Source: a virus
Length of the DNA: 64,000 nt
IMG/VR virus record: IMGVR_UViG_3300033981_002321
Location: 11,394 to 75,393 of that record
Reading direction: 5' to 3' (one strand)
Shown here: positions 158 through 64,000 of the stretch, piece after piece
Layout: each line of letters begins with the position of its first letter
Position numbering within the stretch: the first letter of the stretch is position 1
The notes under the pieces: generated by a model
Seen by the model: only the letters and a program-made list of their open reading frames with translations
The model's database searches: none
Told to the model about the DNA's origin: nothing
Made by a program: the position numbers and the translations under genes

Positions 158-838
158 ATGGCCAGCATTTCTGTTCCGCCAAAAGATAGTCAAGCGGGTA
201 TTGCCGCCGAAGCCGCTTCGCAGATGACAGTTTCAACATCAAGCAGTGAATCCACCACACTGACAGCTTCGACGCCCTCTCGCATGACAATCGTGGCGAT
301 GAGGGGACTCGCAGGCACTGGCGGGGGCGGGGGCGGAGTAAAGAATCTCTCAGAGCTTGAAGATGTAAACGTTACAACAAATCCTCCATCTGATAACCAG
401 CCACTTGTTTACAATGAGTACCTAGAAAAGTGGGTTCCAGGCGATAAACCTATTAGTCTTGACTACATTGAACACACCACCGAGAGCTTGCTGCCTGGCG
501 ACGTGGAAGACGTTTCGCTAAGCTCTCCGCTAATTTTCAACATACTGGCAATATATTCAACCAACCCAGCATGGGTTCGTGTCTATGGAACAAGTGATGC
601 AAGAACGGCTGATACGCGAACCAGCCCAGGTGGAATACCACCAGCAGCTGGAACTGACTTCTACGCAGAGGTCGTAACCACGGAATCTCCACAGCTTATC
701 AGGTTCTCCCCCATCCCGATGGTACTCACATCTTTTGGAGAGGTATTTATTCGGGTCGTTAACATGGACACTGTAAACAGAGAGCTATATCTCAATTTCG
801 GGATTCTTGCTTACGGGGTTTATACAGTAGGCGGTTGA
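158..838 (+). CDS. Putative tail-fibre-associated structural protein
   Basis: S/T-rich N-terminus, Gly run and 'LSELEDVNV...LVYN....KWVP' fibre-type repeat; lies between the two paralogous virion genes. Confidence 0.6.
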   Translation: MASISVPPKDSQAGIAAEAASQMTVSTSSSESTTLTASTPSRMTIVAMRGLAGTGGGGGGVKNLSELEDVNVTTNPPSDNQPLVYNEYLEKWVPGDKPISLDYIEHTTESLLPGDVEDVSLSSPLIFNILAIYSTNPAWVRVYGTSDARTADTRTSPGGIPPAAGTDFYAEVVTTESPQLIRFSPIPMVLTSFGEVFIRVVNMDTVNRELYLNFGILAYGVYTVGG

Positions 839-880
839 CGCCTGATCCTTGCTTTCTTCACTTTATTCCTTTCTTGAATC

Positions 881-1876
881 ATGGCCTGCACTAAAGAAAC
901 CTACACCGCTACAGCAACGTGGACCGCCAGCCAGCTGGCCACGCTGTTCCGTGATGCCTTCATCGACGCTGGGTTGATGACGGACTGGTACGACTCATTT
1001 CTGAGCGGCAGTATTGAGAATCGGATTCTGGAAGTCACCTACGCCGGGACCAAAGCATACGGCAAAACTTACTACTGGTTCATGTTCTCGACTACTGGCG
1101 TGTGGTTGCATGTGGCAACGGGATGGAATACTGCGACGGATCAGCCAACTGGCACGCAGTATCTGGACTTCTTTGCCACCACAACGAACGCAACAACCAA
1201 CCACTGGCAGATGTTCGCTGCTGCCACATCAAATACTGTGGAGCTGGTGCGTTACACCTCTGGCGTGGATGCGGATCAAAGTTGGTTCACGATCAAGCGC
1301 AGCGGTGGTGTTGATCGGACGTTTACGATTATCAACGATGCGCTTACGGTGCAGTCGTGGCTAGATTTGAGCAAGGGGTTTTTCAATGGGTTTGTGCATG
1401 TGGCACCTTTGATTGATAGCAACTCTGGAGTTGTCCAGTTTGATCGTGGGCCTGCCCTTAGGCGGGAAATTGCAGTGGGGACCTATCTAATTGGTGATAC
1501 GGCCTCAACGAATTATACTAATAACATTGTCACTAGAACCCTTTGTTCGTATGGAGTAACCGGAAGGGCCAATGCTAATGGTGCTGGCAACTACGGCACA
1601 ACGGGATTCATCCCCCTCCCCACCGCCTCAGCCACCGCCAACCCTGCCTACACCGCCGACAGCAATCCCGTATTCCACAGCCTGCCATTCCACCCTTACG
1701 TTGCCGAACCGCTGCCGTCTGACTTCGGCATGAGCTTCCATTTCGCCAGCAATGCCTTCGACCCTGGCGACACGCTGGTGGTCACTGCAGGCGCTGAAGA
1801 ATGGCAAGTGCTGGCTGAAACCGCAGGCACTGCCGGGACCGTTGCCACCCCCATGTTCCTCGCCCGCATGGTCTGA
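881..1876 (+). CDS. Virion structural/tail protein (331 aa)
   Basis: T/A/G/W-rich, beta-type composition; paralog of the truncated upstream gene. Confidence 0.65.
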   Translation: MACTKETYTATATWTASQLATLFRDAFIDAGLMTDWYDSFLSGSIENRILEVTYAGTKAYGKTYYWFMFSTTGVWLHVATGWNTATDQPTGTQYLDFFATTTNATTNHWQMFAAATSNTVELVRYTSGVDADQSWFTIKRSGGVDRTFTIINDALTVQSWLDLSKGFFNGFVHVAPLIDSNSGVVQFDRGPALRREIAVGTYLIGDTASTNYTNNIVTRTLCSYGVTGRANANGAGNYGTTGFIPLPTASATANPAYTADSNPVFHSLPFHPYVAEPLPSDFGMSFHFASNAFDPGDTLVVTAGAEEWQVLAETAGTAGTVATPMFLARMV

Positions 1877-1881
1877 GTCTG

Positions 1882-3222: not shown

Positions 3223-4011
3223 TTATCTAGCTTTTACAGTTTTGCACAGCAATCGATCGATAGGCTCAATTGTTCTTTTTTGCCCCGGACTGAAACCGTG
3301 AGCAGTGGTTTCAAAGTATGCAATTTTCTCATCAAGGAAATCATTGATTACTTGAATTCTCATCCCTCTGCCAAGCTCCTTCTGACTTTTCTTTCTTTCG
3401 AGCAAGACCAAGATCTCTTTCAGTGCCGCTTCTGGCACATCGCATTCGTGCAGCAATTGCGCAAACAGCATAGGCGGGGATTTATGGTACTTCTCGATCC
3501 ACATACAAGCAAGCACGGGGCGGAGAACGTAAAAGTATTTCTTCGTTCTGACCAAATCACTCTTCAGGTACTCCTTGAAGTTCTTTTTGGCCATGTGAAT
3601 ATAATGATACACAGATGCTATCTCTGAAAAGCAAGACTTACTTAGTTTGTACAGCTCTTGATAGAAATCAAGATTAACCTTGTAGATCATTGGGGATCTA
3701 AGCCATTCCATGAGCACTGGATTGCCTTTATTTAGCAAAAACAGAGCTTTTCTAACATCCCAGCCAGAGTAGTCAAATTCATCTACGATCGGATATTCGA
3801 TAACATCTCTGTCTGGTATGACCTTTAGATACCATTCCTCTTTGTGTCTGTAGATAAACCGCACATCGTAATCCGAGTCGGGGGATTCAAAACCCCAGGC
3901 CCTTGAACCAGACTCTGCTGCGTAGAGAATCTCAACAGAATGTTCTTGCTCTATTTCAGATAATCGCGTGATTATCTTAGTGCAGTAATCGGAAGTGTCA
4001 GTTTGAAACAT
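3223..4011 (-). CDS. DNA polymerase beta-superfamily nucleotidyltransferase (RlaP/YcgL-like)
   Basis: ESGSRAWGFESPDSDYDVRFIY (GS...DxD), 'GWDVRKAL.LL.KGNP.L.EWL.SP' and 'KKYFYVLRP.LAC.WI' motifs; start moved to ATG 4011. Confidence 0.9.
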   Translation of the reverse strand: MFQTDTSDYCTKIITRLSEIEQEHSVEILYAAESGSRAWGFESPDSDYDVRFIYRHKEEWYLKVIPDRDVIEYPIVDEFDYSGWDVRKALFLLNKGNPVLMEWLRSPMIYKVNLDFYQELYKLSKSCFSEIASVYHYIHMAKKNFKEYLKSDLVRTKKYFYVLRPVLACMWIEKYHKSPPMLFAQLLHECDVPEAALKEILVLLERKKSQKELGRGMRIQVINDFLDEKIAYFETTAHGFSPGQKRTIEPIDRLLCKTVKAR

Positions 4012-4024
4012 TTTCAAATACTGT

Positions 4025-7000
4025 CTAATAAACGGGAGGCAGGGGATCGCAGCATCGACGCACTTTCCAGTATTCAAATCTGTTAAGTGCAACACGCTCG
4101 TAAACGTGCTGAAGCTCTCCAAAGCGACTAAACTCGGGGACGCAGATCCAGTGTGACGGCGTTACTTTCATGGAAAGACCATCGTACGGGCCACCGATGA
4201 GTGAAACTTCAGCGAACAAATCAGCCTGAGGCATTGTCAAGCAGTGCAGAGATTGCATATACCGGCCAGATGAATGGCCGCAAGAAAGCCAGTGCGATAG
4301 CCTGAGTGGTCAGCTTATCGAGTACCGAGAACAGCATCCACATAGCGAGGCAGCTGCTTCCGTAAAAGTAAACGTTCATTGAATTCCTTAAAGTGTTAGG
4401 GCTAATTTTCTGAAATATCCCATCGCCTGCGACTCCACTCCGCTGTGCTGATCACCTCTATCGCACCATCTCGAAAACGCGATGCGTATGGATCATAAAC
4501 ACTGCGAGAAGCTGGCTCAAGTGTTTGAGGGTCAACGGCAAAGCACATTTTGTCAGGGCTAATTACTTTGATTAGACCCGAATAATCGCCAGCAAACCGT
4601 GTCGTTTGCAATTCTCTTGGATCGGTCATGTTTATTTTGCCTTAGTGGTTAGCGTCTGGCATAATTAAGCGAGGGTGCTCGTGATCATGCCCAGGCACGT
4701 TCACCAAGATGATAAATTCTTTGCCCGCCCCCTCAATCAGCCCAGGCAGATTCCCGCTGTCCCTCCTTTTAATCACATCATCCCAAATCTGGAGAAGAGA
4801 CACACTTTTGTGAACTCTGAACTCACCCTTGTCATAAAACTTGCCACTCTGTTTGAAGTAGGTGAGCTTTACAACTAAAGATTCGTCTACACTTTCTCGC
4901 CCCCACTCAAAACCACGATTAGCCGCTTTGTCAATCAACCACGATTCTCGACCGGCGCCCCCATCTCTATACCGAGGCGCTTCCTCTCGCCACTTTGCTT
5001 TCAGTTCTTCGGATACGATCAGTTGCTCTGTGTTCATTTGTTTGGTTGCTGAAAAACATAGCAAAAACTATGGTCTAAAAAGCTTATGTGGTGTCACATC
5101 AGAAGAAACTGGAAGCCAGTGAGTGTCTTCGTCATAAGGGCAATCCTGCAAACCGAACTCCCAGGCATCTTCTTCTTTGTTCCAGAAACCATAAAGACAG
5201 CGCCCGCGTGCGTCCACGTCATCCGGCCCAGGCTTTTCTTCTGAAAGTGAAACTGGTTTCTTGATTTGAAAAGCAGCAATGCCAAAAGCATCTGTCATCC
5301 GTTGCTCCAGCGTAACGATTCCGCCCTCTGGAACACCACGCCCACTCTCGGGAATAGCGCCATCAGATGCCAATCCCTCTAATGCCTCCAGCCGCTTAAC
5401 TAGAGCAGCAACGATTACAGATTGAGCGCTAATGTGTTTTGCTACTTTCCGCTCCAGCGCAGCGATGCGATCAGCTTGTTGCGGATTCCAGTAACGAGTA
5501 TGCCGCCAAAGCTGACTGGGATCAACCTGTGACCAGTGATAGGTGGCAGCAACATCAAAGTAGGGAGATACTTTCACTTGTATGTCCCCGTGAAGATCAG
5601 CATCGTCCTGCGTGGGGGCGCGACCAGTGATCCATTCGTTAGTTCCGCTCATCGATCAGCCTCCACGCGCAGCTCGACCCACAAAGCATCCCAAGTAGTG
5701 GCCCTAGGCCCAGTGGTGAAGCGATTGAAAGCCGCAGCTTCTTGTGAGGCCTGGAGCCAAAGAATTGGAGAAACAATTGCAAAAACAAGAGCTACCATGC
5801 CAGCGGATACTCCAGCATAAGGCAGTATCTCTTGAAGCATTTCTTTGAACTTGCTCATAAAACACAAACGGAACGTGAGCTGCTCATGAACACTAGCACC
5901 ATTGGTGCCGTTACGCAAGAGGCTTGAGTTGGGGGCGTGGCAAGGCCCACCATGGGGCGAAGTGAGTAAACCAAGTATGGTTAGTTTCGCTTGGTGGCTC
6001 ACCTAGCACCCACTTCGAGCCACCAATTTCAGATATTAACCAGCATCTTCCAAACTCATCCAACTCTTCGGGCTCCGGTCCCCTCTCAGAAAGTGGAATA
6101 GGCCTGAAAAGTGCATCACTAGAAACTCGCGGGTCTTTTGAGACCTGCACCTCCCAATTGATGATGTCGTTTAGAGCTTTCTTTGGATCGTTTTCATTTT
6201 CCTTGTTCAAGAGAAATCTGCAAACCAGAGCATCGTCGATGACTGCACGCCATGGATTGCCTGATTTGTTTTCCAACTCGACCTGAAAAGCAGCAATTGC
6301 GGAACTCAGTTCACTGCTTTTCCAGCCATGCCCAGGCGGTCCTTCGTCACAGGCTACATCCAGTGCCTCGGACAATACCTGCCATTGCTTCGAGGTAAGC
6401 GTGACAACTTGAAACTGTTGATCAATAGTCATAAAATTCATCAATTACTTGACCATCCTTGTCATACACGGCGCCTGTATAGGGATAAATGAAGCGCACG
6501 CTTTCCTCCTTGTCGGGTCCAACCTTGTATTTGTAGATATGATCGCTACTTCCACCGTATCCAATAGAGATTGTGCTTCCATCAGGCAAGGTGCCAGCAT
6601 AAGTGAAAGTGTACTTATAGTAACTTGAAAACTTTACTTTTGCATCGCCGTATTTTTCAATAAATTCTTCTCGTGTCATTGACTTGACCTCGCTTCAAGT
6701 TCGGAGATCGCTTCGAGGGTCCGTGCCCCCCAGCGGCGCAAAGCAGCACGGACGAGAAGGCCGACATCCCCACCCTTGACCCAGAGGCCACAGGGGTGCT
6801 CTGCATGGCCCTGGATGAAGCCGTCGCGGTCTGCCCAGGCCTCTACCTCCTCGTCGCCAGGAATGTCGGTCTCCGGCCCCTGGAGCCATGCCTGAGCAAG
6901 CTCGCGAATCCCCTGCCGCCACTCATCCTCAAGCGGCTCCCCTGCTGCGGCGTGCAGCAAGCGAATGTAGGCTGCGTCTGCGTGCATACACGCCAACATA

Positions 7001-8615
7001 TCATCAATCAAATGATGCGCAGTGTAAATTGCAGTCATTGCTGAGCCTCCAGTTCGCGGGCAGAGAATTGGGCGACAACTGCAGCACCACGGCCGCTTGC
7101 ATGATTAACACAAACTTGACGCGCTTGCCTAATACTTATGTTGGTGTTGACGACATTACATTGCCACCAAAACGGAGACCACCACGGGCGAAACTGCGCC
7201 TCGTAGCCGAGATAAGAATCTCGCACCACGCGGTAACAGGTCGGGGAGAATCTGAGTTTCATTGCTGGGCCTCCCCAGTGCCGTTGCACCGCTCGCACTC
7301 CCGGTAGCTGGTGCCTTTGTGGCGGCACCAACCAGCCCACGTTTTGCCGGTGCCTCTGCAGTTCCAGCACTTGCCGGTTTCCGCTTCGTAGGCGACGGCC
7401 ATTGTCTCAAGTTCGACCTTGGAGATGATTACTCGTTTTCCCGTCCCCGTGAACCGAGGCTCACCTTTGCGCGGCCCTTTGCTGTAGACACCATCGGGGA
7501 CGCTACCGGTAACGATTGAATCGCCATCGCAGTTCTCCCACTTGTAGGCCTTCCATCCTTCAATGCCTGCTTTGACTTCTGCGGCTTCCATTGCGTCTTT
7601 GATGCTGAACTTGTAGTTCATTGCTGGGCCTCCAGTTCGGCGAGATGGGTGAGGGCGGCGCGGATAACAGAGAGCTGCGGTGTGGTTATAGCTGTGAAGT
7701 CGTATTTACCGGCGTCTTCAGGCAGTGATGCCAGCGCCTGCTCCGCCAGCGACGGAGGCCTGGGACGCATGGCGGTGCGAAGATGGTCAACAAGGTGCTC
7801 CCGAAGCTTCGTTTCGTCAATAAAGAGACGACCTACTCCATCAATAATTTCAAAACAGCAGGCATCCAACATGTGATCCGCACGCTCCTGTATCTCAGGC
7901 TCGCGCTGGTCCCAGCCCCATTGAGCTGCGGAATTAAGAGCATCGCGCCACGAATCGACAAGAAGCTCATCATTTCTTGTGTTGAACTTTCGCCAAAGTT
8001 CTTGAGCAAACTCCTGCGGCACTTGAATAGCGTGTGATTTTGACATGGATCTTGAATCAATGGTGTTGGTCATTTGATTTTTGGTTTTGTTTTAGCCAGT
8101 TATGCCTGGCCAGTCGAGAACCGTGGCACTGGCCGCGACCACATATTCTCTTGCCTTCCGGCGTAATAACAGACCCGGACGGATCAACGTAGACCCGCCC
8201 ATCGCCCAGCAGCGCACCATTGACTGTAATTGTGCGCGGCCCCAACACATGAAAGCCTCGCGCAACAAGAAAGGCGTCTATCGCAACCGCGATTTCCTCC
8301 CCCTCAAGCTCAATAGCAACTCCAGGACCGTATTCAGTTGTGCCGCCCCCGTAACCGATTCTCATAGCCAAAAAGAGAGTTTTGGTTTAGTGACAAATTG
8401 CATCATTTGATCTCGGTTTCAGAGGGAAGATTAAGCTTAACAGATGTAACAATTTTCTCCCAACAAGCATCGTCTTTAATCCATTTGGGGCGCTGCATAT
8501 AAAATAGTGGGGCGGTGATACTGCCATCTCGCCCCCATACGCCCCAAGACTTGCAAAGCCCGCTAACTGGGCCAGAAACCTCGTAGTGGCTTGGCTTAAA
8601 AACAAACTCTGTCAT
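4025..8615 (-). other. Leftward cluster of tightly packed small hypothetical genes: 4025-4234, 4221-4379 (membrane), 4402-4629, 4642-5037, 5068-5652, 5649-5858 (TM), 5911-6432, 6422-6679, 6676-7038, 7035-7262, 7259-7621, 7618-8073, 8057-8371, 8403-8615
   Basis: Contiguous same-strand ORFs, many with ATGA stop/start overlaps. 5068 and 5911 share a C-terminal 'P.SLSE..P....D..GRC...THW/F.P' module. Confidence 0.75.
7259..7621 (-). CDS. Hypothetical protein with DnaJ-type zinc finger
   Basis: CWNCRGTG and CERCNGTG (two CxxCxGxG motifs). Confidence 0.7.
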   Translation of the reverse strand: MNYKFSIKDAMEAAEVKAGIEGWKAYKWENCDGDSIVTGSVPDGVYSKGPRKGEPRFTGTGKRVIISKVELETMAVAYEAETGKCWNCRGTGKTWAGWCRHKGTSYRECERCNGTGEAQQ

Positions 8616-9838: not shown

Positions 9839-11296
9839 TCAAGCGCTCTTAGGCAGTCCAGGGGGCGGGGAACTGCAAAGTATAGAGCTATCCAGCAATC
9901 GTTTCAACGGGTTTTCAATGAAACAATCAAATTCATCGAGATAAATGAAAGCTTCATAGAATTTTGAAGCAATTTTTTTACAGTTATATCGATTCGAGGG
10001 CGCCATTGACTTTCTGTACTGGTGCCTGCCTGGGTTGACACCGTTACTAAGGGGGGTGTGGGCCAGGAGAGAAACCCAGTATTCCCAGTGCTTCTCAAGG
10101 GTTCTGCGGCTGATCTTGGCTGCTTTGGCAAGTTCCCTCTTGCTCAGCCCTGCTGCTTTCTTGCAGTTCCTCCAAACAACTTTAAGCTTCTCTCGACTTT
10201 CTTTGAAAAGCCTCTCATTGCGATGCTTATCACCACCAAGCTTCTCTGCTGGTACAGCTTTCAAGTTGCCGAAATCCTTTTTAAGTGAACACCTTGCCAG
10301 TCTCTCGCCCCACCCACCACGAATTGCCGTCAAGTCTTTTTTAGTTTTATCAGATGCGTGTTCATCGAAGCCTTCTGTCTCAAGTGCATTATCTCTGATA
10401 ATTTCTCCAAGCTGCACTGGGCAAGTGATGTGAGGGTTTTTAATTCTTGCAAGTGTTGTGATGCGCAGAAGTAGTTTCTCGCTTTGACCGCTTTCAGTCC
10501 ACTTGATGCCAGATTCCTTGCTGTTAAAGTTATTCGCTTTTTTCTTCGCCCCCAATGCGCCCCAGGCAGTTCTCTTCTTGAGCTGCTTTGCCGCTTCAAT
10601 CAATTTTCGCCATTCATGGCAGTCTTTAGCCTCCTCCAAATCATTGTTGAGCTGGCTGTAAATTAAATCGCAGTCTTCAACGTATGACTCGTTGACGATC
10701 AGAGCGCTGCCCTGCTGTCCGGGGAGGCGGAATCCCTGGCTCTGGACCCGCCCCAGCGAGAGATCTTCCCGGAAGTCCATCCGTGAGGGGAACAGCTCTG
10801 CCTGGCCTTGCTGAGCCTCGATCCCGGCCCTCCTGAACAGCTCCATGCCGATCCAGTGGGCCAGCCAGCAGGGGGCGGCTTCGGGCAGAGAGATGTAGCA
10901 GTGCAGCCCACCAGACTCACTGCTGCGAATGAAAGATACAGAGCAGCCAGCTTTATTTGCTTCTTGTTCGAGTTGTATTAGTTCTTTGCTGCGAGCGAAT
11001 TTGTGCCAGTATTTACTGCTGTAGTCTTCTTTGTGATCAAAGTCGCAGGTTATTGACCTTACAAATCCTTCGGGGCGGATACCAGCAATGTTTCTCTCGC
11101 TGCTGGTTAAGTTGCAGATCGCCTCTCTTCTGTAGGGCTTGGGCAGAGAAACCCATTCACCGCCGGGTTTCTTGGCGATGGCAAAGTGCCATTCACTGGG
11201 ATGAGCAACCGAGAGCCATTGCTCTTGGGGGGTGGGTTGCTGCTTGGGGCTTGGGTGCATTAGAATGCGCTTGTTCGACTTTGACAGTGAACACAT
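9839..11296 (-). CDS. AEP-fold primase/replication-initiator-like protein with C-terminal HTH
   Basis: hhDhD (TCDFD), 'RSSESGGLHCY' and 'ELFP...FRLP' AEP motifs; C-terminal 'LSKRELAKAAKISRRTL' HTH. Resembles cyanobacterial plasmid Rep-type proteins. Start may be 11260. Confidence 0.65.
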   Translation of the reverse strand: MCSLSKSNKRILMHPSPKQQPTPQEQWLSVAHPSEWHFAIAKKPGGEWVSLPKPYRREAICNLTSSERNIAGIRPEGFVRSITCDFDHKEDYSSKYWHKFARSKELIQLEQEANKAGCSVSFIRSSESGGLHCYISLPEAAPCWLAHWIGMELFRRAGIEAQQGQAELFPSRMDFREDLSLGRVQSQGFRLPGQQGSALIVNESYVEDCDLIYSQLNNDLEEAKDCHEWRKLIEAAKQLKKRTAWGALGAKKKANNFNSKESGIKWTESGQSEKLLLRITTLARIKNPHITCPVQLGEIIRDNALETEGFDEHASDKTKKDLTAIRGGWGERLARCSLKKDFGNLKAVPAEKLGGDKHRNERLFKESREKLKVVWRNCKKAAGLSKRELAKAAKISRRTLEKHWEYWVSLLAHTPLSNGVNPGRHQYRKSMAPSNRYNCKKIASKFYEAFIYLDEFDCFIENPLKRLLDSSILCSSPPPGLPKSA

Positions 11297-22584: not shown

Positions 22585-22652
22585 TTTTATTTGTGCTTGA
22601 CACCACCCCCCTGGTGTGTTACAATTAAGGAGTGACGGGCAAGCCCTGTCAC
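22585..22652 (+). promoter_or_regulatory. Early promoter P3 plus 5' hairpin
   Basis: TTGACA 22597-17-TACAAT 22620; hairpin 22632-22652. Confidence 0.85.
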
Positions 22653-24060: not shown

Positions 24061-24837
24061 ATGACTGTTTTTACTTTCGACCACGCCCAGGAGATTCTAG
24101 CTGCGCAAGAAAAGCGTGGCTTTGACAAGAAAAAACTCGCCAACAACACTTACCTCACCAAGAAGGACGATGCTTTTGTCATTCGTCTTCACGATACTGA
24201 CATTGTGAAGATCAAAGAAGAGAGCAGTCAAACCTTCTTTACTGTCAACACTGACGGCTGGATGACTTCTGCAACAAAAGAACGCATCAATTCTTTCACG
24301 CCCCTGCGAATCTTTCAGAAGCGTGGCGTTTGGTACGTCCATCAGCAAGTTGATGGACGAGAAGAGGTTGTGCAGTTCTTTGATGGAATGACTGTTGATC
24401 AGTCGGGGCGAGTGGTTAATTCTGCCGAGGCTTCTCTTGATAGAATTGAGGTGGGGCGGAAGCTGGATCAGATGATCACGGACTACATCAAGAAGTTCTG
24501 TGATCAATCAATCAAAGAGGGATTGCCGCTACCCAATGCTGGAGATTGCTGGCTTTGCAAGATTTACTCACAAGCCAAAAGTGAACAGAGAAATCTGGAT
24601 GGCATGGATCATGTTTACTCTCACCTAGAGGAAACCTATATCCATGGCAGCTTTCTTGTTTATGCTGCCACCGTTGCAGGCTATAGCAATCCGGGTTTCA
24701 TCTTTGCGCTCATCCAGCAAGACTGCCAGCGTGGCGACGTGACAATGCTCAAGCGGGTTTTCAGAAGCTTCTTCAAGAAAGTGCGGCAGAAGTTGCTGAA
24801 GTTTGCTGAGCAAGAAATTGAGTTGGGGGCGGAATAA
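24061..24837 (+). CDS. Conserved phage hypothetical protein
   Basis: 'LANNTYL...IRLH.TDIV...GW.T..TKERIN' motif. Confidence 0.8.
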   Translation: MTVFTFDHAQEILAAQEKRGFDKKKLANNTYLTKKDDAFVIRLHDTDIVKIKEESSQTFFTVNTDGWMTSATKERINSFTPLRIFQKRGVWYVHQQVDGREEVVQFFDGMTVDQSGRVVNSAEASLDRIEVGRKLDQMITDYIKKFCDQSIKEGLPLPNAGDCWLCKIYSQAKSEQRNLDGMDHVYSHLEETYIHGSFLVYAATVAGYSNPGFIFALIQQDCQRGDVTMLKRVFRSFFKKVRQKLLKFAEQEIELGAE

Positions 24838-29164: not shown

Positions 29165-29259
29165 GGGGGCGAAAAGTAAAAGTCTCTTTTATTTGTACTT
29201 GACATTCGCCCCTGCGTAAGGTACAATTAAGACATGGCAGGCAAGGTCTGTCATGTCTT
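29165..29259 (+). promoter_or_regulatory. Early promoter P6 plus 5' hairpin
   Basis: GGGGGCG 29165; TTGACA 29199-17-TACAAT 29222; 14-bp stem 29229-29259. Confidence 0.85.
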
Positions 29260-30589: not shown

Positions 30590-30683
30590 GGGGGCGGATA
30601 AAACAAAGTACGATTTATTTGTACTTGACACCGCCCCTTGCATGTGTTACAATTAAGGAGTGACGGGGCAAGGTCTGTCACTC
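30590..30683 (+). promoter_or_regulatory. Early promoter P7 plus 5' hairpin
   Basis: GGGGGCG 30590; TTGACA 30625-17-TACAAT 30648; GAGTGAC/GTCACTC stem. Confidence 0.85.
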
Positions 30684-31871: not shown

Positions 31872-31961
31872 GGGGGCGGGAAAATGAAAGTATGATTTGT
31901 TTGTACTTGACAGCGCCCTCTGCATAGTGTATAATTAAGACAGGTGGGCCGAGGTCTGCCT
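31872..31961 (+). promoter_or_regulatory. Early promoter P8 plus 5' hairpin
   Basis: GGGGGCG 31872; TTGACA 31907-17-TATAAT 31930; hairpin 31942-31961. Confidence 0.85.
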
Positions 31962-34655
31962 ATTTTCTGTTCATTTCTTTTTTCTCATGTCAGTCAAGAC
32001 TTTCGACCAGCAACTTTTTTCCCGCACTCTGGGAAATTGCGAGATTGAGTTCTGGGCCGATCCCTTCACGCGAGGTGAGTTCAACGAGGCTGCTGATAAG
32101 TGGCTGGAAATACTCAATGAGTGCCAGCTGAGGGGGACCTGGCAAATAAACGGGCTTCGATTTATGGGCGAAGTCTGCGAGACGATTTCTGACACCAGGG
32201 GAATTGTCTTTGAGGTCAAGAAAGATGAGGGGCGGTGGAAGTTTGAAGCCTCCTGGAATGGTCAATTATTGTCATTTGACTTTGGGGCGTATGATTTTGC
32301 CCCACGCCCAGCGATTGTCGCTTCCGTCAGGGCTTTCTTTTCCTGCTGATTCTTCACAAGCCAAATTGCCTTCAGCGGAGATAGGCACCGCACATTTTTA
32401 GATCAATGACGCAAACTATCTGGGTTACAGAGCTGGAGCTTCAGGGATCCAGTGGCTGGGATTGGCGTTACAGCAAAGAAGAGGCTTTGGATGTTGCGAG
32501 AAATGATTTCAAGGTATGCGCCGATGCCCCCGATTTCTTGGGCTTCGCTTTTCATCGGATGGAAGTTGCGGAGGGGTTGGATCGTGATCAAATTCAAGCA
32601 TACCTTGAGGACGCAGGGCTGATCTTTGATCGCACTGATATTCAAATAAACAACTGAACCTTCCTCCATCCTTACTCATTTCTTTTAGATCAATGACTGC
32701 TCAGCCATCTTTTCATTGCATCGCCAACATCGGTGATGCCACCCCACTTGTTTATGGCGGGGCTTTTGTTCTTGTCGATCTTCGGGGCTGCTACGATCCC
32801 GAGCTTTTGATTCTTGAGCCAGAAGGAAGTGATCGCTATGGCGATCCTACAAGTTGGGAGCGTTACGCGATCATCTGTGATCGACTGACGGCCATCAAGA
32901 ATAAGACGGGCGAATATGTAGCGCTATCCGACAATCCATTCCATGTGGATCATCCTGCATGGTTTGGAACAGAAGAAGATTTGCAATCTCTTGCAAGTTT
33001 TGCTGGCATGTCTGTTCACGAACTTGTACTTGAAGCCACTTCTTCAAATCCCGTGCATCGGGCAAGTTTTTATCGAAGACTGCTCGACTGTCATGGCCCT
33101 GTCAATTTTGAAGCGGAGCCAGAAGAGATGAGCAGGAAAGAAGCCAAGGCACTTTGCTTAGCCATGGCGGGGCAAATTGTAGAAGCCAGGTCGTGGCACG
33201 ATGGTTGGATAATTGAATAGCATTTGAACTTGTATTTTCTCGCCCCCTCTCCACAATGTTCAGCTTAGTTCAAGCCTTTCGTGTCAACGGACTAAAAGTT
33301 GAGATCATGATGGATCTCGACAACGAAGAGAGTCTTCCTGGGCAGCTTGGAAGTTACTGCTACTTTGTTGATCTACAGGAAGCGGCTTCCGAGTGTTGCT
33401 TCGGCTTCGACTCATTTCTTGAGTGCATAGCAGAAGCAATAAGAGTTGCTGAATCGTTTTAGTTTTCTTTTCTCGCCCCCCATCATTTCTTTTGCCCCCC
33501 CATGGAAAGTCTCACCATGCTTGAGCTATCTAGAAAGATTGCTCACTTCGAGAAGTTGCTGCAGCGCTATAGAAGACTGAAGGACTGGTACAAAGTTGAT
33601 AGAGTCGCCGATCAACTGGAAAGACTCCAGGAGAGACATGACGCAGAACAGAGAAGGCTGCAGCACGAACAAGATATGAAGGAGCTTAGCGACTGGTACG
33701 ATGATGAAAAGAACAGAGATGCCTATACTTCAAGAATCATAGACGAGCAGTTTTCTGATATGGTTGTTTAGCTTACAGCTTCTTGCCCCTCTATCAATCC
33801 TCATCATGGACTCTGATAAGATACAGAAAAAGATTGAAAAAATAGAAGAGAAGGCCAATCAGCAGGTTGACAATCTAGCAAGAGAATACTTTGATCAGGT
33901 AGTTGTTCCTTTTTGCAAGAAGTATAGCTTGACGTTTACAAGTGGCATGGGCCTGCTTGCATTTAGCTTCGATGAATATGATTTGATGTTTCACGCGGCC
34001 AGCGACATTCCCGATGCTGAAGACATCGCGGAAATTCACGAAGAAGACCTGTGCGGATACGAAAAGTTTGCCTTAAAGTTTCCGGGGGCGAAAAAAGAGA
34101 TGGAGGAAATTTACAAGGTTGTCTACTTAGTAGTCTTTGAGTTTGAGCTTGGTTTTAGTATGCCGTGCTATAATCCCCGAGTGATCATTTAGTTTACATT
34201 TTCTCGCCCCCCCATCACTTCCTTCCCATCATGTCTACTTTATTTGATCTCGCCCCCAACAACCAAATACGCGCAATTACTTTGCGCCTAGCCCTGATAA
34301 AGCATCGGGGCGACATTGAGGCTCAGCAACGAGAGTTCAAGCCATGGGGCGAAACAGAATATCAGCAAAAGATAGAAGAGATTGATGGATTCTTGTTTTA
34401 CATAGATCAAGCGGTGAGGGACGAAAGGTCTATCAGTGCGGAGATTGTTTATCCGCTGCCAGAGGTTGGCAAGGTTTATGGGCAGTGGAAAGTGCTCAAG
34501 CTGCAAAACGGTCTTGTTGTCGCCACCAGTTCTATTGACGAGGCGACTGAGTGGGTTATGAGCATCGCTGAGTTTTGGAGGAAAGCAAAGTAGTTTCTTT
34601 CTTTCTTAAATAGTGTGTGTCTGCGCTGTGCTCGTAAGAGCATGGCGCATTTTTC

Positions 34656-35417: not shown

Positions 35418-35454
35418 GTTTACAGTTTCCCGCCCCCACCACTTCTTTTTTCTC

Positions 35455-44476: not shown

Positions 44477-44490
44477 GCCATCCTTTTGCC

Positions 44491-44520
44491 GCCCCCTCCT
44501 CTTCCCGGAGGGGGCTTTAT
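44491..44520 (+). terminator. Intrinsic terminator
   Basis: GCCCCCTCC/GGAGGGGGC followed by TTTAT. Confidence 0.75.
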
Positions 44521-45685: not shown

Positions 45686-45925
45686 CCACACCTACAGCTT
45701 CTCGCCTCCGCCCCCTTTTGGGGGCTTTTTATTGCTCGTGTGATTTCCTGCTATAGTGACGATGTAGGGCTTCTTCGTTGCAGTGCTTCGAGGATGCTGT
45801 CGCGGCAGTGCCGCAATCTTTTTTCTTGGTGTTGAGAGAGCGCTGGCGTTTGACGCCCCTCATCTCTGTCGGCTGTGCCGAGCCTCGAACCTGTTCAAGC
45901 AACTCTTCCTTTTGAGGCTAAAGCC

Positions 45926-58000: not shown

Positions 58001-61000
58001 AGAAGCTCTATGCAGCTCTTTCCTCCGAGATGCTTCCACTGCTTACTGGAACAATCTCGATCATAAATGACTTTGCTGCCGCTCTTCAAAGAATTGCCTC
58101 CATAGACGTACCCGACTGGGTTAAAAACGTTGGAGGTGCTGCATTTAACGTTGCATCTGTCGTTAATCCCGGTTTTGGTCTCTCTAGGGCTCAATTTGAA
58201 AACGCAAGAAAGCGTGGCCAGGAGGCCGCAGAAAGGGCTGGTACTCCACCGCTCACTCAAGAAGGTCAGAGAAAGCAGGAATTGCTGCCATTTCAGCAAA
58301 CTACTGCTGCTCTCTCTGCCGGCCTTGAAGCGTCAGACATTGCTAAAAAGTACACTGATGCAATCAAAACTGCAGCAGAGGAACAAGAAAGCTTAGACGA
58401 GCAAAGATTTGAGCTGATCGAATCTTACGAAAAATCAATTGCCGATATTAGAAGAGGGGTTGAGCAAAGAATCACTCAAGAGCGACTGTCTGTTATTGCT
58501 AAAGAAAACGAGCTGTTTGCGGCTCAAGGAGAAGTTCGCCTTCAACAGCTGCGCAATGCAAATGCCGAACTGAGAGCTACCGTCTTCGGCAACGAGATTG
58601 GGCAACAGCTTATTGATGCTGTTTCTGAATTTACAGAAAAACAGCTTTCGACTGAGAACGAGGTTGCAAATCGTCGTCGCTCTCTTGAGCTAGAGCTTGA
58701 ATCCAAGCGAATTGAGATCGAGCAATACAGGATTGATGTTGCGAAGCAAGTTAGCGATCTAAATCTCTCAACTCAAAAACAGGTTGAGAAAATTAACGAC
58801 GGGATTCTGAAGAAAAACCAAGCCTATGACAGGAGTCGCTTTGAGATTGAAAAGCGCATCAATATCAATAATCTTGAGATCAAGAGACTGGAGGCGAAAC
58901 AGCAAGAAAATCTGTTTAGAGGGGCTGCCAACAATAGCAATCCGGCCATCGCCAAACAAAATCGCGAACTGGCTGATCTTTACGCCAATCAAGCCACTTT
59001 TATCGAAGCTCAAAAGAATGCCGTGAAGAGCTTTGCTCCGCCCCCACAGCTTTCTTTCGGGTCGGTAAGCGCTAGTGCTTCTGTTTCTACTGCTGGGCTT
59101 GACACTGTTGCCGCTCGCGGCAAGCAACTCGCAACGGCTATTGCAAGTGTTCAGAACGAGCTGTCTTCACTTGTATCAAGTGGTGACTTCATCGGATTCA
59201 ATGCTCGCCTCAAGGAGATTGCGGACCAAGGCGTCACTGGACTTATCAATCAGTTCGAGCAGCTCAGGGGCGAGTTGAGCAACGATCCGCTGGGGGCTCA
59301 ATTTGCAAAAATCGGAGAGGCGTTTGAGGCTGTTTCAAAGGCTCCCGAAATAGCTCCCTACAAAGAGCTTGTTCTTGAGTACCAAAGGCTCGCGGAGGCC
59401 AACGTAAAACTTGGTGCATCGCTTGAGTTCTTCCTTGAGAAAGGGGGTCAGCAGTCCTCTCAGCTTGATTCACTGCGAGTTGAAATCAACTCTGCCATCA
59501 GCGGCACCACGGAGCTTGAGAAAGCCATGATGGATCTTACTCAGAGAGGTATTAGTCCCGCCTCTGAAGAGTTTAAGATTCTCACAGAAAATGCAGCAAA
59601 GCTTGACATGCTGCAACAAAAGCTTCAGGTCATCAACAACTTCAAGACTGCTTCGTCTGAGCTGACTCTCTCACTGCGCGGATTGATCGAAGGCTTCTAC
59701 GAGCTTGGTAGCGCCTCTGAGGCCGTCAAGAGAGTGGGTGAAGAGCTGGGGCGTAAGAGTCTTGGCTTTGTGCTTGACATTGCTTTTAAGCCCGTTGAGC
59801 AGGCTATGCAGAAAACGATGTTTGACCTTGCTGGCAAGCTTGGTTTTGACATCAAGCCAGAACAGTTGCAACAGCTTGAAGAAATCAAAATACTGAAAGA
59901 TCTTGTTGCGAGCATTGAAAGAGAGATTGTGAAAAAGCAGGGCGCAGTCGTTCCAACGACTCTTGGGGTGGGGGTGCCCGCCTCAGAGAAAATACTGACA
60001 GAGGAACAGCTGAGGGTTCAGGGCCTGGTCAGGGGGCTTGGCTCACAAATACAGAAACGAGTCGAGGAGGTTTCAGGCAGTTCCGAACTTGAGACGCTAA
60101 GGGGAGCGCTGAAGGGCGAGGTCAACCTATTGCTCCCCCCGGCTGACATAAATCCAAATCAGTTCAGACTGATAAAGGAAGGTGCTCTCAGCGAAGTAGA
60201 CAGGCAGATTAATGAAAAAATCCAAAAACTATATCCCCAGTTACCGCCCTCTCAACAGCTACCGCCCCAGTCTTCCCTCCCCAGCGCCTTCACCGGCATT
60301 GGCGGGCCGAACGGTCAGTCGCACGAAATTCTTAAAACAAAAGCAGATCAACTTTTTCTTGATTTTGCTTTTGAGACCTATGAAAAGGTTGAGGCAGCCC
60401 TCGGTGAAACGGTGCAGAAAATTCAAACAATGTCTGAGCTTGGATTGTACAGGGAAAAGCAGTTTAATGCGATCGGAAATTTCCTGAGCAGCGTGCCAGA
60501 CGAGGCGAGGCCCGCCATGACCGTTGACATAGAAAGAATAATAGAAACAGCCATCTCAAAACGCGCTTCTGAAATTTCTGCTGGTCCAGCCATTGTTGCC
60601 CCTTCGCCCGAGTCAGCGGTTGCCCCGGCCGCCAAATCGATGCAGTTGATTAATGAGTATACGGTCGATTCGGCCCAGCTAACCGGAGAAGCAGCACAAA
60701 AAATACAAGAAAGCAATCAGAAGATAGGGGGCATTGTTCCGCAATGGGGCAAGAACCTTGGACAGGTCGTAACAGGTCTAAGCCTCGCCTCCTCTGCTGT
60801 TATTGGAATCGTGGGCGGCATTCAAAACATACAAAAGGGCGGGGCTGGAAACGTACTCAGCGGCATTGGCTCGGTCCTAACAACCGTTGGCAGCATTGGC
60901 ATGAGTGTCGCTGGATTTATGAAGCCTTCTGGCTTTGGGGGTCCCGCCGCCGCCGGAAATAATCCATGGACTAGCGCAGTCCAGGGAGTTATCAAAAACG

Positions 61001-61533
61001 CAAACGGAAACGCATTTCAGAATGGCGAGTTGATGAAATTTGCCAATGGCGGAATTCTGCAGTCCCCTACACTGTTCAGTTTTGAGAGCGCCGGGGTGAC
61101 CCGTACCGGACAGGCCGGTGAGGCGGGAACAGAGGCGATCATGCCGCTCAAGCGGACCAAGGATGGGCGCCTGGGCGTCGAGGCGGACCTCTCCATCCCA
61201 TTCGAGGGTGGCAGCCTGATGGTGGACGAGGAGCCTCCCACGGCCCCCAGTGGCAGCAGCTCGATTCCTTTCCGCAGTCGCTCTGGCAACACGCAGCAGC
61301 AGCCTTTGAGCATTCCGTTCATGAGGGCTGATGTTGTATCTGCTGAGTTTGGTGGAGACGCCGGGGATGGGCCGATCAAGTTTGAATCAACAGTGATCAA
61401 CAATGTAGAATACGTGACCAGGGCAGAGGCGGAACAGATTGGACGTGCTTCGGCTGCCCGTGGGGCCGAATTGGCTCAGCGTCGCATTAAAAACAATCCA
61501 CAGGTTCGTCGTTCAATCGGGATGTCGCAGTAA
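55090..61533 (+). CDS. Tape measure protein (2147 aa)
   Basis: Long helical A/Q/E-rich protein, Gly-rich TM-like segment, C-terminal 'FANGG..SPTLF...GEAG.EAIMPL.R..DG.LGV'. Confidence 0.92.
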   Translation: MASYQAIIDLIVNGQTEVDRVIRSTDQLAAAIGRINSRPLELQPGRAQQSVERLTRSLQGIDRQVEQAAAHLTPLRNNFQAVSREAGTLDRALQRNSRSLEVNRRQSQIYGNAVRNAAAGSEELQRASFRHSLVVGRISRLTEQQTQLERRRAAVDARMTYQLRQMAGAEADLAEAQERRGQAFQDRESARGLQAQIQFADRLARSYMNAEAAQQRAARGLRDAGLDDLAGRIGAVQSTAGLRSEIQFFDSLASSVATNTEAFKRFTIASRAASQSLAEVNRNRLAILAEAFTPPDRPVMGPGGTLVEPPIAGRPLEPGQRPRTSNEARRGTSGRALSNEEVSRTRQEVDRLINSFNEVPRSEAGLRDYIERLGELRSVVTFTSEAYRRLAQQQRIAGDLLETAASLQRPGAMQGPGQLAATTGPASLIEAPENRLKRQLFYEKTREDILSRLVAFENNINEADLTQVQRTQLQIRLDEALLALDQNRLDVARRLTREGEQARMSTERENRRNRITGGPMRAGGPGETIASIDAPQKVQEILRQTTTLQLYLNKLASEGVDVTLQQSAAQNLINEISAQGLQLSDRFVKAKRDELSAIREITKQEKIRQTGGLDPEVLEGRVQRLLGRTIGLESKAISLQEKGATNADQLRLEVQQKINALKQLEGNITSQNADAVANDLRLLLKSINEISNALGEARNQVSQVAALTGFEGSFQKLQTSFAETGSFFQNVSPEEAIDKIVRQFTPSLAGTTGLAALEQLEKPAKLSSQKLTLLASGLQELAAQIDPLVPGAKRLLKEMNGVSASLQNEQAGRAPDADFLVRLTKNPRLAAGISEGLIGGAFPLLFGQGVGAAAGGGIGGFAGGYAGGALGFGLSLIGTAIGSAVDTTVNNLKALASSLKEPTAALEAMKTAGLKVDSGLQDLVDRLETVGNAAAAQAIVFAELEKQLGPGAAKRLNALSEEQKKLDEINQKLYAALSSEMLPLLTGTISIINDFAAALQRIASIDVPDWVKNVGGAAFNVASVVNPGFGLSRAQFENARKRGQEAAERAGTPPLTQEGQRKQELLPFQQTTAALSAGLEASDIAKKYTDAIKTAAEEQESLDEQRFELIESYEKSIADIRRGVEQRITQERLSVIAKENELFAAQGEVRLQQLRNANAELRATVFGNEIGQQLIDAVSEFTEKQLSTENEVANRRRSLELELESKRIEIEQYRIDVAKQVSDLNLSTQKQVEKINDGILKKNQAYDRSRFEIEKRININNLEIKRLEAKQQENLFRGAANNSNPAIAKQNRELADLYANQATFIEAQKNAVKSFAPPPQLSFGSVSASASVSTAGLDTVAARGKQLATAIASVQNELSSLVSSGDFIGFNARLKEIADQGVTGLINQFEQLRGELSNDPLGAQFAKIGEAFEAVSKAPEIAPYKELVLEYQRLAEANVKLGASLEFFLEKGGQQSSQLDSLRVEINSAISGTTELEKAMMDLTQRGISPASEEFKILTENAAKLDMLQQKLQVINNFKTASSELTLSLRGLIEGFYELGSASEAVKRVGEELGRKSLGFVLDIAFKPVEQAMQKTMFDLAGKLGFDIKPEQLQQLEEIKILKDLVASIEREIVKKQGAVVPTTLGVGVPASEKILTEEQLRVQGLVRGLGSQIQKRVEEVSGSSELETLRGALKGEVNLLLPPADINPNQFRLIKEGALSEVDRQINEKIQKLYPQLPPSQQLPPQSSLPSAFTGIGGPNGQSHEILKTKADQLFLDFAFETYEKVEAALGETVQKIQTMSELGLYREKQFNAIGNFLSSVPDEARPAMTVDIERIIETAISKRASEISAGPAIVAPSPESAVAPAAKSMQLINEYTVDSAQLTGEAAQKIQESNQKIGGIVPQWGKNLGQVVTGLSLASSAVIGIVGGIQNIQKGGAGNVLSGIGSVLTTVGSIGMSVAGFMKPSGFGGPAAAGNNPWTSAVQGVIKNANGNAFQNGELMKFANGGILQSPTLFSFESAGVTRTGQAGEAGTEAIMPLKRTKDGRLGVEADLSIPFEGGSLMVDEEPPTAPSGSSSIPFRSRSGNTQQQPLSIPFMRADVVSAEFGGDAGDGPIKFESTVINNVEYVTRAEAEQIGRASAARGAELAQRRIKNNPQVRRSIGMSQ

Positions 61534-62000
61534 TGGAACTATGTAACTTCATGCGATTCAAAAGCAGGGATGGAGTTTACACAAATTGGGCTGCTCAGAA
61601 TTTTTTCCCCGATCAGTCCAAGAGCTTTCAGGGGGCGTCCTATCGGTTTATACCAATAGCAGTTGCAACAAATGCTTCTACAAGGGGCGGTGATCGAGCA
61701 GAGGCGGCGATTAGCGCTCCAGCCGGCGAAATAACCAGCTCTGTTTTCAAAGAGGCAACAGATGAAGACTGGCTGCTAGAAATTAAAACCGCAAAAATAA
61801 ATAGATCCAGCTTCACTATTGACAATTTGCTTACCACTGAGATATGGGCCTGCTCCCAGGTTCAGTATGACATTTCTCAGAATGGAGTTGTACTTCAGCT
61901 TGCTTCGCCCCTTGATTCAGTGAGTCGAATTGGCGGAAGGTTTTTGTCTCAGTCTCTGGTTGGCGCACTTCCGACAAACGGAAACCTTGTGCTGCAATGA
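61533..62000 (+). CDS. Minor tail protein
   Basis: TAATG-coupled to the tape measure; 'L.L.SPLD.V...R.L...LVG.LP..G'. Confidence 0.7.
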   Translation: MELCNFMRFKSRDGVYTNWAAQNFFPDQSKSFQGASYRFIPIAVATNASTRGGDRAEAAISAPAGEITSSVFKEATDEDWLLEIKTAKINRSSFTIDNLLTTEIWACSQVQYDISQNGVVLQLASPLDSVSRIGGRFLSQSLVGALPTNGNLVLQ

Positions 62001-62383
62001 TTGACTACTCTAAATGGATCGGACTGCCTCACAGGTTTGCCGCTGATCCCGATGATGGCGAGGGGGCGGATTGCTTGATTCTAGCTCACAAGATATTGAT
62101 TTCTGCTGGCGCCCCATGTCCGCCACTTAACGGCGAATGGCTGCAACTTGCTCTTGCTAGGCAATGGGATCAACTTGAGCAAGAGTGGCACAGGTACATG
62201 GTTGCGGTTAAGATCCCCAGGGATTTTGATTTGTATATGACAAGAAACCCCGAGACGGGCTTCAGCATTGCGACGGTTGTCGAGGACGGCGTTGTGTTTG
62301 TGAGCCACAGAAAGGGGGTGGCATGGATTCCGTTAGGATTGGTTCAGGGGAATTTCTGGAGAGTCCGCTGTGCTTCCGGCTGA
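61997..62383 (+). CDS. NlpC/P60-like tail assembly protein (gpK-like)
   Basis: 'WIGLPH..........DC.IL' motif. Confidence 0.7.
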   Translation: MIDYSKWIGLPHRFAADPDDGEGADCLILAHKILISAGAPCPPLNGEWLQLALARQWDQLEQEWHRYMVAVKIPRDFDLYMTRNPETGFSIATVVEDGVVFVSHRKGVAWIPLGLVQGNFWRVRCASG

Positions 62384-64000
62384 TCGTTACGTTGCTTCCC
62401 TTCTGGGACTGACCGAAGAGCAATACAAATTCTGGAAGGATTATGTAGAGGAGCAGGCGAGGAAGGGGCCCCAGCCTGCAGTTGTTTGCGGTGAACCAGT
62501 TTCAACAACAATAGCAACCATTTCCCTGGTTTTGTCAGTTATTGGTGTTGGTTTTCAGATTATCGGCTTTCTGCTGCAGTCAAGACCTGGCAGGCCAGCA
62601 GAACTTCAGACAAGGAATAAGAACGGCAATAACCAAATAGGAATTTCCTCCTTCGCCCCCCGTGCTGGTTTTGATGCAATCCAAGACGTTGCGGCGCTCG
62701 GGGCTCCCATTCCAGTAATTTACGCAAACAGAGAGACGATTGATGGCAAGACTTATGGAGGGGTGAGGGCGAATCTTTCGTTGCTGTGGTCTCAGGTCTG
62801 GAGCCTTGGCGGAAGCCAGATGCTTAGGGCCGTTTTCATGATAGGAGAAGGGGATGTTGAGTCAGTTGATCCACTTGGTTTTGCAATCGGGGATAATACA
62901 ATTGGCGCCTATGATTTACTTAGTGCATCCGCCAACCAGTCGGGTAGTCGAATCACTATCTATTACAAAGGGGATGGGGGTCGCATTGTATCTGGTGACA
63001 GAATTGCCGGCAGAGCCGCCAGTCAAGACCCTGGAAACGCCCAAAATTCCGGTGGAGATGACGTTTTCTCGATCCTTTCTGTTGGAAATGATTGGGCCAA
63101 AGATTTTTCCTCAACTAGCAAGCCAAGCAATAGCACGACATTTGGCGTATTTAGATTAATTGGAAACAATCTTGCCTTTAAGCTAAATCCAAACGTTCGC
63201 CCTGGTGTGAATGCAAGGCTTAAGCCCGTTGGTGACGAGGGCGATGCAAAGGTTGAGTGCCCAATTGATAATGTCGCAAATGTGCAAAGGCAGAAATTTG
63301 AAGCGACGTTTTCTTCTCGCTCAGGAATCGTCTCCGGTGGCTTTAGCGAGGGAGACACGTTTACATACAAATTGCTCAGCGGCAGTGATTTTCAAACCGA
63401 ATACTCTTATGGCATTGCAAACGAAGAGGGTTGGGAATCTAAAAAGGAGTTAAATAGAGGGCCTGTCGTTTATTCAAAAACGGGTGCAACTCTAACGATT
63501 GATTGGCTGTCTTTTCTTACTGTTGAGGCTCCTTCTATTGACACGGTTGCTCAAACATCTTCTGTGAGGGTGTTGTTTGACACGACGGCTGCTGGATCTG
63601 CTCTTGCCGGTGCAGCGGAGGGGCGCTACAGAGTAGAGTATTGGGTTAAGCTTGAAAACGATGAGATCAAAGAAGATATATCCTCTTTCTTTGATGCCAT
63701 AATCACGATCTACAAGGATCAAACGCTCTACGAGGCGCAGAAGAACAATGATGGGCTGGTAACAGATATTGTTGTCACTTCTGGGACCGGCGGTGGCTTT
63801 ACTAGGTTTGAGTATGAGATTTCAAATGATTCTACGCCCCTGTCTGCCCAAAACGGAAATCTGAGGGCTGATATTAACTTTGATTTCTCTGAGCTTGATG
63901 CTTACCTGGAAAAGGCCGATGACGCAGCTTCTTCTGTTGCGGCAAGGCAAAAATCTTGGGATGATGCAATTGTTGTCGGAGAAATGTATAAAGTTGGCTC
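62370..64000 (+). CDS. Tail tip/host-specificity protein (partial, runs off the window)
   Basis: GTG start MLPADRYVASLLGLTEEQY...; 'G.PIPVIY', 'LLWSQ.WS.G..Q.L'; still in frame at the window end (DDAIVVGEMYKVG). Confidence 0.8.
   Translation, partial: MLPADRYVASLLGLTEEQYKFWKDYVEEQARKGPQPAVVCGEPVSTTIATISLVLSVIGVGFQIIGFLLQSRPGRPAELQTRNKNGNNQIGISSFAPRAGFDAIQDVAALGAPIPVIYANRETIDGKTYGGVRANLSLLWSQVWSLGGSQMLRAVFMIGEGDVESVDPLGFAIGDNTIGAYDLLSASANQSGSRITIYYKGDGGRIVSGDRIAGRAASQDPGNAQNSGGDDVFSILSVGNDWAKDFSSTSKPSNSTTFGVFRLIGNNLAFKLNPNVRPGVNARLKPVGDEGDAKVECPIDNVANVQRQKFEATFSSRSGIVSGGFSEGDTFTYKLLSGSDFQTEYSYGIANEEGWESKKELNRGPVVYSKTGATLTIDWLSFLTVEAPSIDTVAQTSSVRVLFDTTAAGSALAGAAEGRYRVEYWVKLENDEIKEDISSFFDAIITIYKDQTLYEAQKNNDGLVTDIVVTSGTGGGFTRFEYEISNDSTPLSAQNGNLRADINFDFSELDAYLEKADDAASSVAARQKSWDDAIVVGEMYKVG

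Follow-up and report, generated by a model that had tools for sequence, protein, structure and literature searches.

The stretch of DNA analyzed here (hereafter the window) spans 64,000 nucleotides, bases 11394-75393, of a linear virus record of 75,393 bp in IMG/VR (IMGVR_UViG_3300033981_002321), which is about 94% complete and has a G+C content of 49.5%. A six-base word, read as CGCCCC on one strand and as GGGGCG on the other, recurs throughout it and is the subject of this report. Crude calls of open reading frames (ORFs), made for the present analysis, outline what is, by its gene complement, a siphovirus-like freshwater phage, whose genome is designated G000 in the comparisons below. It encodes a small terminase-like gene (35377-36210), ThyX (39263-40009), the large terminase TerL (40029-41432), the portal (41527-43251), the major capsid protein (45875-46909) and a tape measure protein assigned by size and position only (55090-61533). 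On the minus strand lies an ORF for a predicted primase-polymerase (Prim-Pol; 9839..11296), to which we return below.

Between positions 322 and 63840 the plus strand of the window carries 70 copies of GGGGCG and 68 of CGCCCC, that is 138 dispersed copies, bearing out the excess noticed in the original prediction, a reading of this sequence that had tallied 60-65 per strand by hand; all the positions listed there are real, with 35432 corrected to 35431. The whole genome contains 160 copies (79 + 81). For both strands of the window together the expected number is 28.9 under an order-0 model, 32.8 under an order-2 Markov model and 62.4 under an order-3 model. The word is the top hexamer by z-score, with a wide margin, CGCCCCC is the top heptamer, and TTTCTCGCCCCC is found in 8 copies. 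Called genes contain 117 copies, as against 37.5±5.6 after synonymous-codon shuffling (z=14) and 32.4±5.6 under a codon permutation null; for instance, GGGGCG encodes the dipeptide Gly-Ala in 29 places where 5.9 would be expected, and CGCCCC encodes Arg-Pro in 18 places where 3.7 would be. As originally reported, the word is present in both coding and intergenic DNA (1.9 vs 2.8 copies per kb, with about 73% of the copies inside genes), and it occurs in all three frames and both orientations. Its density peaks where it had been said to (33-39 kb), reaching 3.5 per kb over 33.2-42.6 kb, and by module it is enriched 7.0x in the early, 8.8x in the middle and 2.6x in the structural genes. Along G000 the copies are randomly oriented by both a runs test (p=0.12) and a range test (p=0.40), their spacing is near Poisson (coefficient of variation 1.1), and in the sense orientation of genes the G-form is found 69 times vs 48 for the C-form. 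The major capsid gene has zero copies, exactly as had been pointed out; we rejected this gap as meaningful since gaps of such size are expected (12 gaps of at least 1.4 kb vs 7.9 expected). The word had also been set apart from HIP1 (GCGATCGC), which indeed has 0 copies in the genome, and literature searches with the word as a string returned matches to primer sequences only.

One explanation for these counts would be an artefact, whether of G+C content, of the choice of codons or dipeptides, or of a small number of cassettes that recur; some copies do lie in recurring promoter cassettes, in leaders and in the stems of terminators. However, the excess outlasts the order-0 and order-2 nulls as well as the codon-aware ones (z ~14), the word read backward is not enriched in G000 (CCCCGC, 42 copies), the excess extends over all frames and modules, and relatives of the same G+C content with homologous genes lack it. 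These observations refute the artefact explanation, to which we assign a negligible likelihood. The excess is a DNA-level feature unexplained by composition or codon usage, and the earlier contention that G+C content does not account for it stands.

Examination of the bases around the word revealed an extended consensus of the form Y-rich(10)-CGCCCC-(C/A). The 10 nucleotides 5' of CGCCCC are 63-75% pyrimidine, and this is alike in intergenic, coding-sense and coding-antisense sites; besides this pyrimidine flank there is no fixed partner motif at a set distance.

We then compared the sites with those of a syntenic relative, G001 (66.6 kb; 73% identical to G000 over aligned blocks). The word ranks first there too, with 169 copies, and YCGCCCCC occurs 49 times in G001 vs 5 for the reversed control. 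Of the 66 sites of G000 that fall in aligned blocks, 34 (51%) are intact in G001, whereas the baseline is 19.6% when hexamers of any composition are taken and 22% when only those made up of G and C are (binomial p ~1e-8). Selection at synonymous sites had been suggested as a thing to look for, and third-codon identity is 75% inside the sites vs 54% elsewhere (p=3e-5); at codon positions 1 and 2 identity inside the sites is no different from that outside. Non-coding positions are 85% identical inside sites vs 72.5% outside. The raised identity spans exactly the six core bases, and the flank remains pyrimidine-rich in G001, mostly via Y-to-Y substitutions. In a comparison of relatives with about 90% identity, variation affects 6.1% of the positions in the motif vs 14.2% of others (p=2e-5), and sites have been both gained and lost. 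We consider it probable that CGCCCC and the pyrimidine-rich stretch 5' of it serve for recognition and are held at high density by selection at the level of DNA.

With respect to its wider distribution, an equal abundance of the word in the host and in unrelated phages would have contradicted the original prediction. In 808 kb of freshwater picocyanobacterial DNA, a candidate for host DNA by its ThyX identity of 65%, it stands at 1.01x (rank 936 of 2080), and about 60 other ThyX-carrying viral contigs with 45-65% G+C show no excess. We also compared the phage's own family, with TerL proteins 69-79% identical and G+C contents of 46-51%, expressing the excess as the ratio to the order-2 expectation. 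It is patchy there, being 4.2x in G000, 4.3x in G001, 3.5x in G006, 2.3x in G008, 1.8x in G005, 1.7x in G007 and 1.15x in G004, G006 and G008 being fragments of genomes. Sites of G000 are kept above baseline in G001 and G006, and at baseline only in G004, G005, G007 and G008; homologous blocks contain 12 sites in G000 vs 2 in G004, and 27 in G000 vs 10 in G007. G008 has accumulated sites of its own, with no homology to the sites in the window. Because the same genes carry different loads across lineages and G008 has its own sites, the pressure, as judged from these alignments, is one that certain lineages exert on any DNA they contain, and it favours density, not particular positions. The claimed lack of strand polarity holds for G000 (79:81), but two relatives are biased, namely G001 (103:66) and G008 (34:12); the bias in G001 opposes the sense skew of G000 if most genes of G001, which are uncalled, share the orientation of those in G000. 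A distinct repeat is seen in the 21 kb around TerL in G001, where TAACTA, CTATAA, AGTTAT and like words have 36-48 copies; this element is absent from the window.

A density-favouring pressure could in principle also be the footprint of biased mutation or repair, possibly coupled to methylation, that turns near-matches into a functionless word, as has been proposed for HIP1. Such a drive would mimic conservation, and the density without positional logic, the equal strands, the sharp six-base footprint and the independent accumulation in G008 are all compatible with it. However, the one-mismatch neighbours TGCCCC, CGCCTC and CGCCCT stand at 1.7x, with no transition-specific depletion, and a neighbour-depletion signature of the very-short-patch type, as expected of deamination and repair, was looked for and is absent. 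Pfam searches with about 93 early, middle and left-arm ORFs found no methyltransferase, Vsr-like or other repair gene and no RepL-like protein, although a host enzyme could still supply the activity. The candidate-host DNA has no excess, and a drive predicts neither the conserved pyrimidine flank nor the unevenness of the enrichment (early and middle 7-9x, structural 2.6x). We regard this explanation as unlikely, and the methylase footprint offered in the original prediction finds no positive support.

The predicted Prim-Pol mentioned above (485 residues; its gene itself has 6 copies of the word) displays a DxD motif ('CDFDHK') and an 'SGGLH' motif, both conserved, followed by a C-terminal helix-turn-helix (HTH) resembling sigma-70 region 4. 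It is matched in Pfam by Sigma70_ECF (4.6e-5) and AEP-TOTE (0.069), and a profile search of the PDB returned a match to CAPP Prim-Pol. An AlphaFold model (pLDDT 74.6), when used in a Foldseek search, recovered CAPP Prim-Pol with an E-value of 1e-8, along with RepB', the LigD polymerase domain, Prim-PolC and the cyanophage S-2L PrimPol. By its modelled fold and catalytic motifs it is thus an archaeo-eukaryotic primase (AEP) Prim-Pol. The earlier label of 'AEP-Rep' had therefore captured a real Prim-Pol; among the ORFs searched against Pfam no counterpart was detected for the methyltransferase and RepL-like proteins named alongside it.

Comparison of the syntenic locus across the family revealed that G000 and G001 (4.2-4.3x) have the Prim-Pol there, whereas G004 and G005 (1.15x and 1.8x), at the same G+C content, have a module of a DnaD-like initiator, a DnaB helicase and Erf (L256:15032-19561 and L262:10100-15867, respectively). 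In terms of gene order and content, one replication module has here been cleanly exchanged for another between members of a single family. Moreover, the word ranks first in every viral contig whose Prim-Pol has an identity of 56% or more.

The primase of pRN1 is known to use an uncopied GTG recognition motif. CAPP Prim-Pols, which by structure are the nearest to the present protein, start with GTP, best on 3'-R-C-C-5', and AEP primases prefer polypyrimidine templates (reviewed in PMC10345425). The word and its flank fit this grammar, as a match of pattern only. The Prim-Pol fold, the link to the module swap and the fit to the initiation grammar together lend specific support to replication priming, one of several roles that had been floated earlier, and we tentatively propose that the word may constitute dispersed priming signals, with the Prim-Pol as the likeliest candidate for their reader. 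Under this proposal the template, read 3'->5', would be CCCC-G-C-YYYYYYYY, wherein CCCC would be the uncopied recognition element and G the uncopied purine, C would template the initiating GTP, and the pyrimidine tract would next template an all-purine primer. Selection would have lifted the six-base signal from once per 4 kb per strand, as expected by chance, to once per 0.94 kb per strand, a spacing on the scale of Okazaki fragments, whichever the strand or the reading frame. Some copies also belong to the cassettes of early promoters, to leaders at the starts of genes and to the stems of terminators. For reference, the Okazaki fragments of T7 measure 1-6 kb (PMC8599759); the density of the word and its symmetry between strands are compatible with priming.

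The initiation sites of T7 gp4 (5'-GTC-3'; PMC8599759) and of AEP Prim-Pols (PMC10345425) similarly combine an uncopied purine with a following C and pyrimidines, such that a polypyrimidine template yields a purine primer, and they too are required on both strands at roughly kilobase spacing; in the present case a Prim-Pol gene is at hand. They differ in that the known sites have 3-5 bases and are common by chance, whereas the present core has six and is about fourfold enriched, and priming is predicted. Priming, which we hold at less than even confidence but prefer to the other explanations, would account for the six-base core and its flank, for the density of the copies and their symmetry between strands, and for the restriction to one lineage as well as the module swap. 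It is conceivable, if rather doubtful, that a Prim-Pol with an unusually long, six-base template requirement forced the fourfold excess of the word on its own genome, silent codon positions included, and that the module swap relaxes this constraint.

Several observations weigh against priming by the Prim-Pol. Where the Prim-Pol is at most 48% identical the genomes are mostly not enriched (G007, 1.7x). The recognition helix of the HTH, SRRTLEKHW, is nearly identical in the enriched and non-enriched Prim-Pol groups, and a specificity switch in the HTH between these clades was not seen. G005 is without a Prim-Pol and yet has an excess of 1.8x. The excess may co-vary with the type of primase, being strong with Prim-Pols at least 56% identical and weak or lacking with those at most 48% identical or with the DnaB/Erf module, but the swap is confounded with phylogeny, with the tail genes (a possible change of host) and with the presence or absence of a recombinase. 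G000 lacks the orientation switch expected of a fixed origin with bidirectional forks, and no helicase partner was recognized in the phage. Further, instead of working as a general primase, the Prim-Pol could, in the manner of RepB', initiate replication at a specific origin.

The confounding with the recombinase bears on another explanation, namely that the word mimics a motif read by the host, such as a Chi-like regulator of RecBCD/AddAB or some other host 'self' word, gathered by phages without a recombination module. This stays alive because Erf is lost in the enriched genomes: no recombinase is recognizable in G000 and G001, but Erf is present in G004 and G005, where enrichment is weak. 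There is a parallel in the lambdoid phages devoid of Rec functions (PMC12315714; Bobay et al. 2013, PMC3784561), in which Chi, likewise a short, asymmetric, G-rich word, is far above expectation and its presence or absence follows the swap of the recombination module. The actual host may also prove to be enriched, the picocyanobacterial one being a candidate. However, phage Chi is strand-polar, clustered at genome ends and enriched in the host, and the present word, when the candidate DNA is taken as the host, is none of these: Chi-rich phages show strand ratios of 20:3 and 32:0 with end clustering (PMC12315714) as against 79:81 and no clustering here, the freshwater picocyanobacterial DNA has the word at its expected frequency, and the other ThyX-carrying phage contigs show nothing. 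Hence, we hold host mimicry to be improbable.

A subset of the copies is embedded in signals for gene expression. Seven near-consensus sigma-70 promoters (TTGACA-17-TAyAAT) are found within 22597-31940 of the window, and also at 2504; six of the seven are followed by hairpins of the TAAGGAGTGACGGGCAAG...GTCAC type and T-rich tracts, which together form a repeated early-gene cassette. In four of the seven early promoters GGGGGCG is positioned about 28 bp upstream of the -35 element. One such cassette (29165..29212, plus strand) has GGGGGCG 8 nucleotides past the preceding stop codon and about 28 bp upstream of the -35, with CGCCCC within the TTGACA-17-TACAAT spacer, so that the two form an inverted pair with starts exactly 41 bp apart. 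The second cassette (30590..30637, plus strand) has the same inverted GGGGGCG/CGCCCC pair at 41 bp. The other two copies of GGGGGCG, both on the plus strand, belong to the early promoters at 24861 and 31907; they occupy 24825..24831 and 31872..31878 and precede the respective -35 elements by about 29 and 28 bp.

Several middle genes are instead preceded, 15-26 nucleotides before the ATG and without a Shine-Dalgarno sequence, by the gene-start element TTTCTCGCCCCCC. The exemplar at 33469..33504 (plus strand) is 22 nucleotides before an ATG, lacks a Shine-Dalgarno sequence and is conserved in G001; similar elements are at 33236, 34200, 35426 and 41440. Within 33236-35460 and 41440-41530 of the window the middle genes begin 15-26 nucleotides past a conserved TTTACAnTTTCTCGCCCCCC element and have C/T-rich leaders without a Shine-Dalgarno sequence, while early genes carry strong TAAGGAG sites; this difference suggests, at the sequence level, two classes of expression signals for early and middle genes. 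The word is also built into a terminator-like hairpin read from the sequence, GCCCCC-TTTT-GGGGGC followed by a T-run (45706..45735, plus strand), with a similar one at 44487-44520. Its densest cluster places two G-form and then two C-form copies in 59 bp (8487..8545); as a structured origin this was rejected, nested hairpins being possible and the fold not significant (z -1.7). Short repeats of the ATTCACATTCAC type stand immediately 5' of two TTTCTCGCCCCC copies at 36930-37100 of the window, in the repeat tract that separates the small terminase-like gene from ThyX, and CATTCACA has 13 copies in the window. The promoter, leader and terminator elements account for a minority of the copies of the word.

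These placements raise a further possibility, that some other protein specific to the lineage, for example a regulator, a silencer or a coating factor, binds the word in duplex DNA, with the promoter copies being primary; it would then resemble a mycobacteriophage stoperator or a nucleation site of a nucleoid protein. The fixed distance of GGGGGCG in four of the seven early promoters, two of them with the inverted CGCCCC at 41 bp, and the copies 15-26 nucleotides ahead of several start codons would be in keeping with such a protein, for which about 10 small ORFs common only to G000 and G001 offer candidates. Nevertheless, about 73% of the copies are inside genes, with random orientation and Poisson spacing; the polarity relative to transcription is inconsistent, with more G-form than C-form in the sense orientation in G000 and apparently the reverse in G001; and the pyrimidine flank is left unexplained. 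Other than the HTH of the Prim-Pol, no DNA-binding fold is recognizable among the candidates, and no repressor is recognizable among 63 small ORFs. We consider a reader of this kind quite unlikely.

The stoperators themselves are 13-14 bp long and point in the direction of transcription, and a genome has about 20-35 of them. In Cluster A mycobacteriophages they are, like the present word, asymmetric sites scattered across genes and intergenic DNA in one lineage, and they are read by a phage protein and found at an early promoter as well (PMC9283540, PMC6550527), just as the word is present at early promoters. In contrast, the word has 6 bp, 160 copies and random orientation.

As for the phage itself, Megablast searches against phage records gave no match, and its closest named relatives are marine cyanosiphoviruses, with protein identities of only 26-36%. 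ThyX shares 65% identity with its counterpart in freshwater Cyanobium/Synechococcus, and a picocyanobacterial host is plausible on the sole basis of this sequence similarity and of the distant relationship to cyanosiphovirus structural genes. No tRNA genes were found in the phage, and Pfam, PHROGs and NCBIfam searches gave no function for most early genes. An RlaP nucleotidyltransferase is encoded at 3223-4122 on the minus strand (Pfam E 5e-88). Its homologues among the matches listed are mostly 48-58% identical, with one partial match at 72%, and belong to unrelated phyla, with carriers such as Azoarcus, Campylobacteraceae, Spirochaetia, Treponemataceae and Brevibacillus; we discarded it as a host probe, the gene being widely transferred and without a host signal. 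A 673-residue protein (genome 5055-7076, minus strand) belongs to PHROG 1735, whose function is unknown; unrelated phages (Ruegeria DSS3_VP1, Pseudomonas Zuri and those of Microcoleus and Aeromonas) encode proteins with 43-46% identity to it, and it has matches in 538 phage records overall.

HIP1 of cyanobacteria and the uptake sequences of transformable bacteria (USS and DUS) are genome-wide words that are independent of frame, occur on both strands and recur about once per kb; HIP1 is palindromic, and USS has a G+C-rich core with an A+T-rich flank. The present word is likewise genome-wide, frame-independent and found on both strands at about one per kb, but theirs are properties of cellular genomes, whereas it is limited to a phage sub-lineage and has no excess in candidate-host DNA. 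Words that shape genomes (Chi, the FtsK-orienting polar sequences KOPS, uptake sequences and HIP1) are known mainly from cells, the clear cases in phages being mimicry of host Chi and the stoperators. To these is now added a non-polar, six-base word specific to a phage lineage, with measurable selection at silent sites and with word-poor close relatives that provide natural controls. We know of no genome reported as having been reshaped to supply the initiation sites of a primase, and if the word is a priming signal this would be, to our knowledge, the first known case of sequence remodelled across a genome to serve the primase it encodes. Which templates an uncharacterized Prim-Pol requires could then be tested directly, and the specificity of a primase would be seen to visibly sculpt genome sequence. 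If instead the word reflects a drive or a protection tag, it would be an equally tractable entry to a new mechanism.

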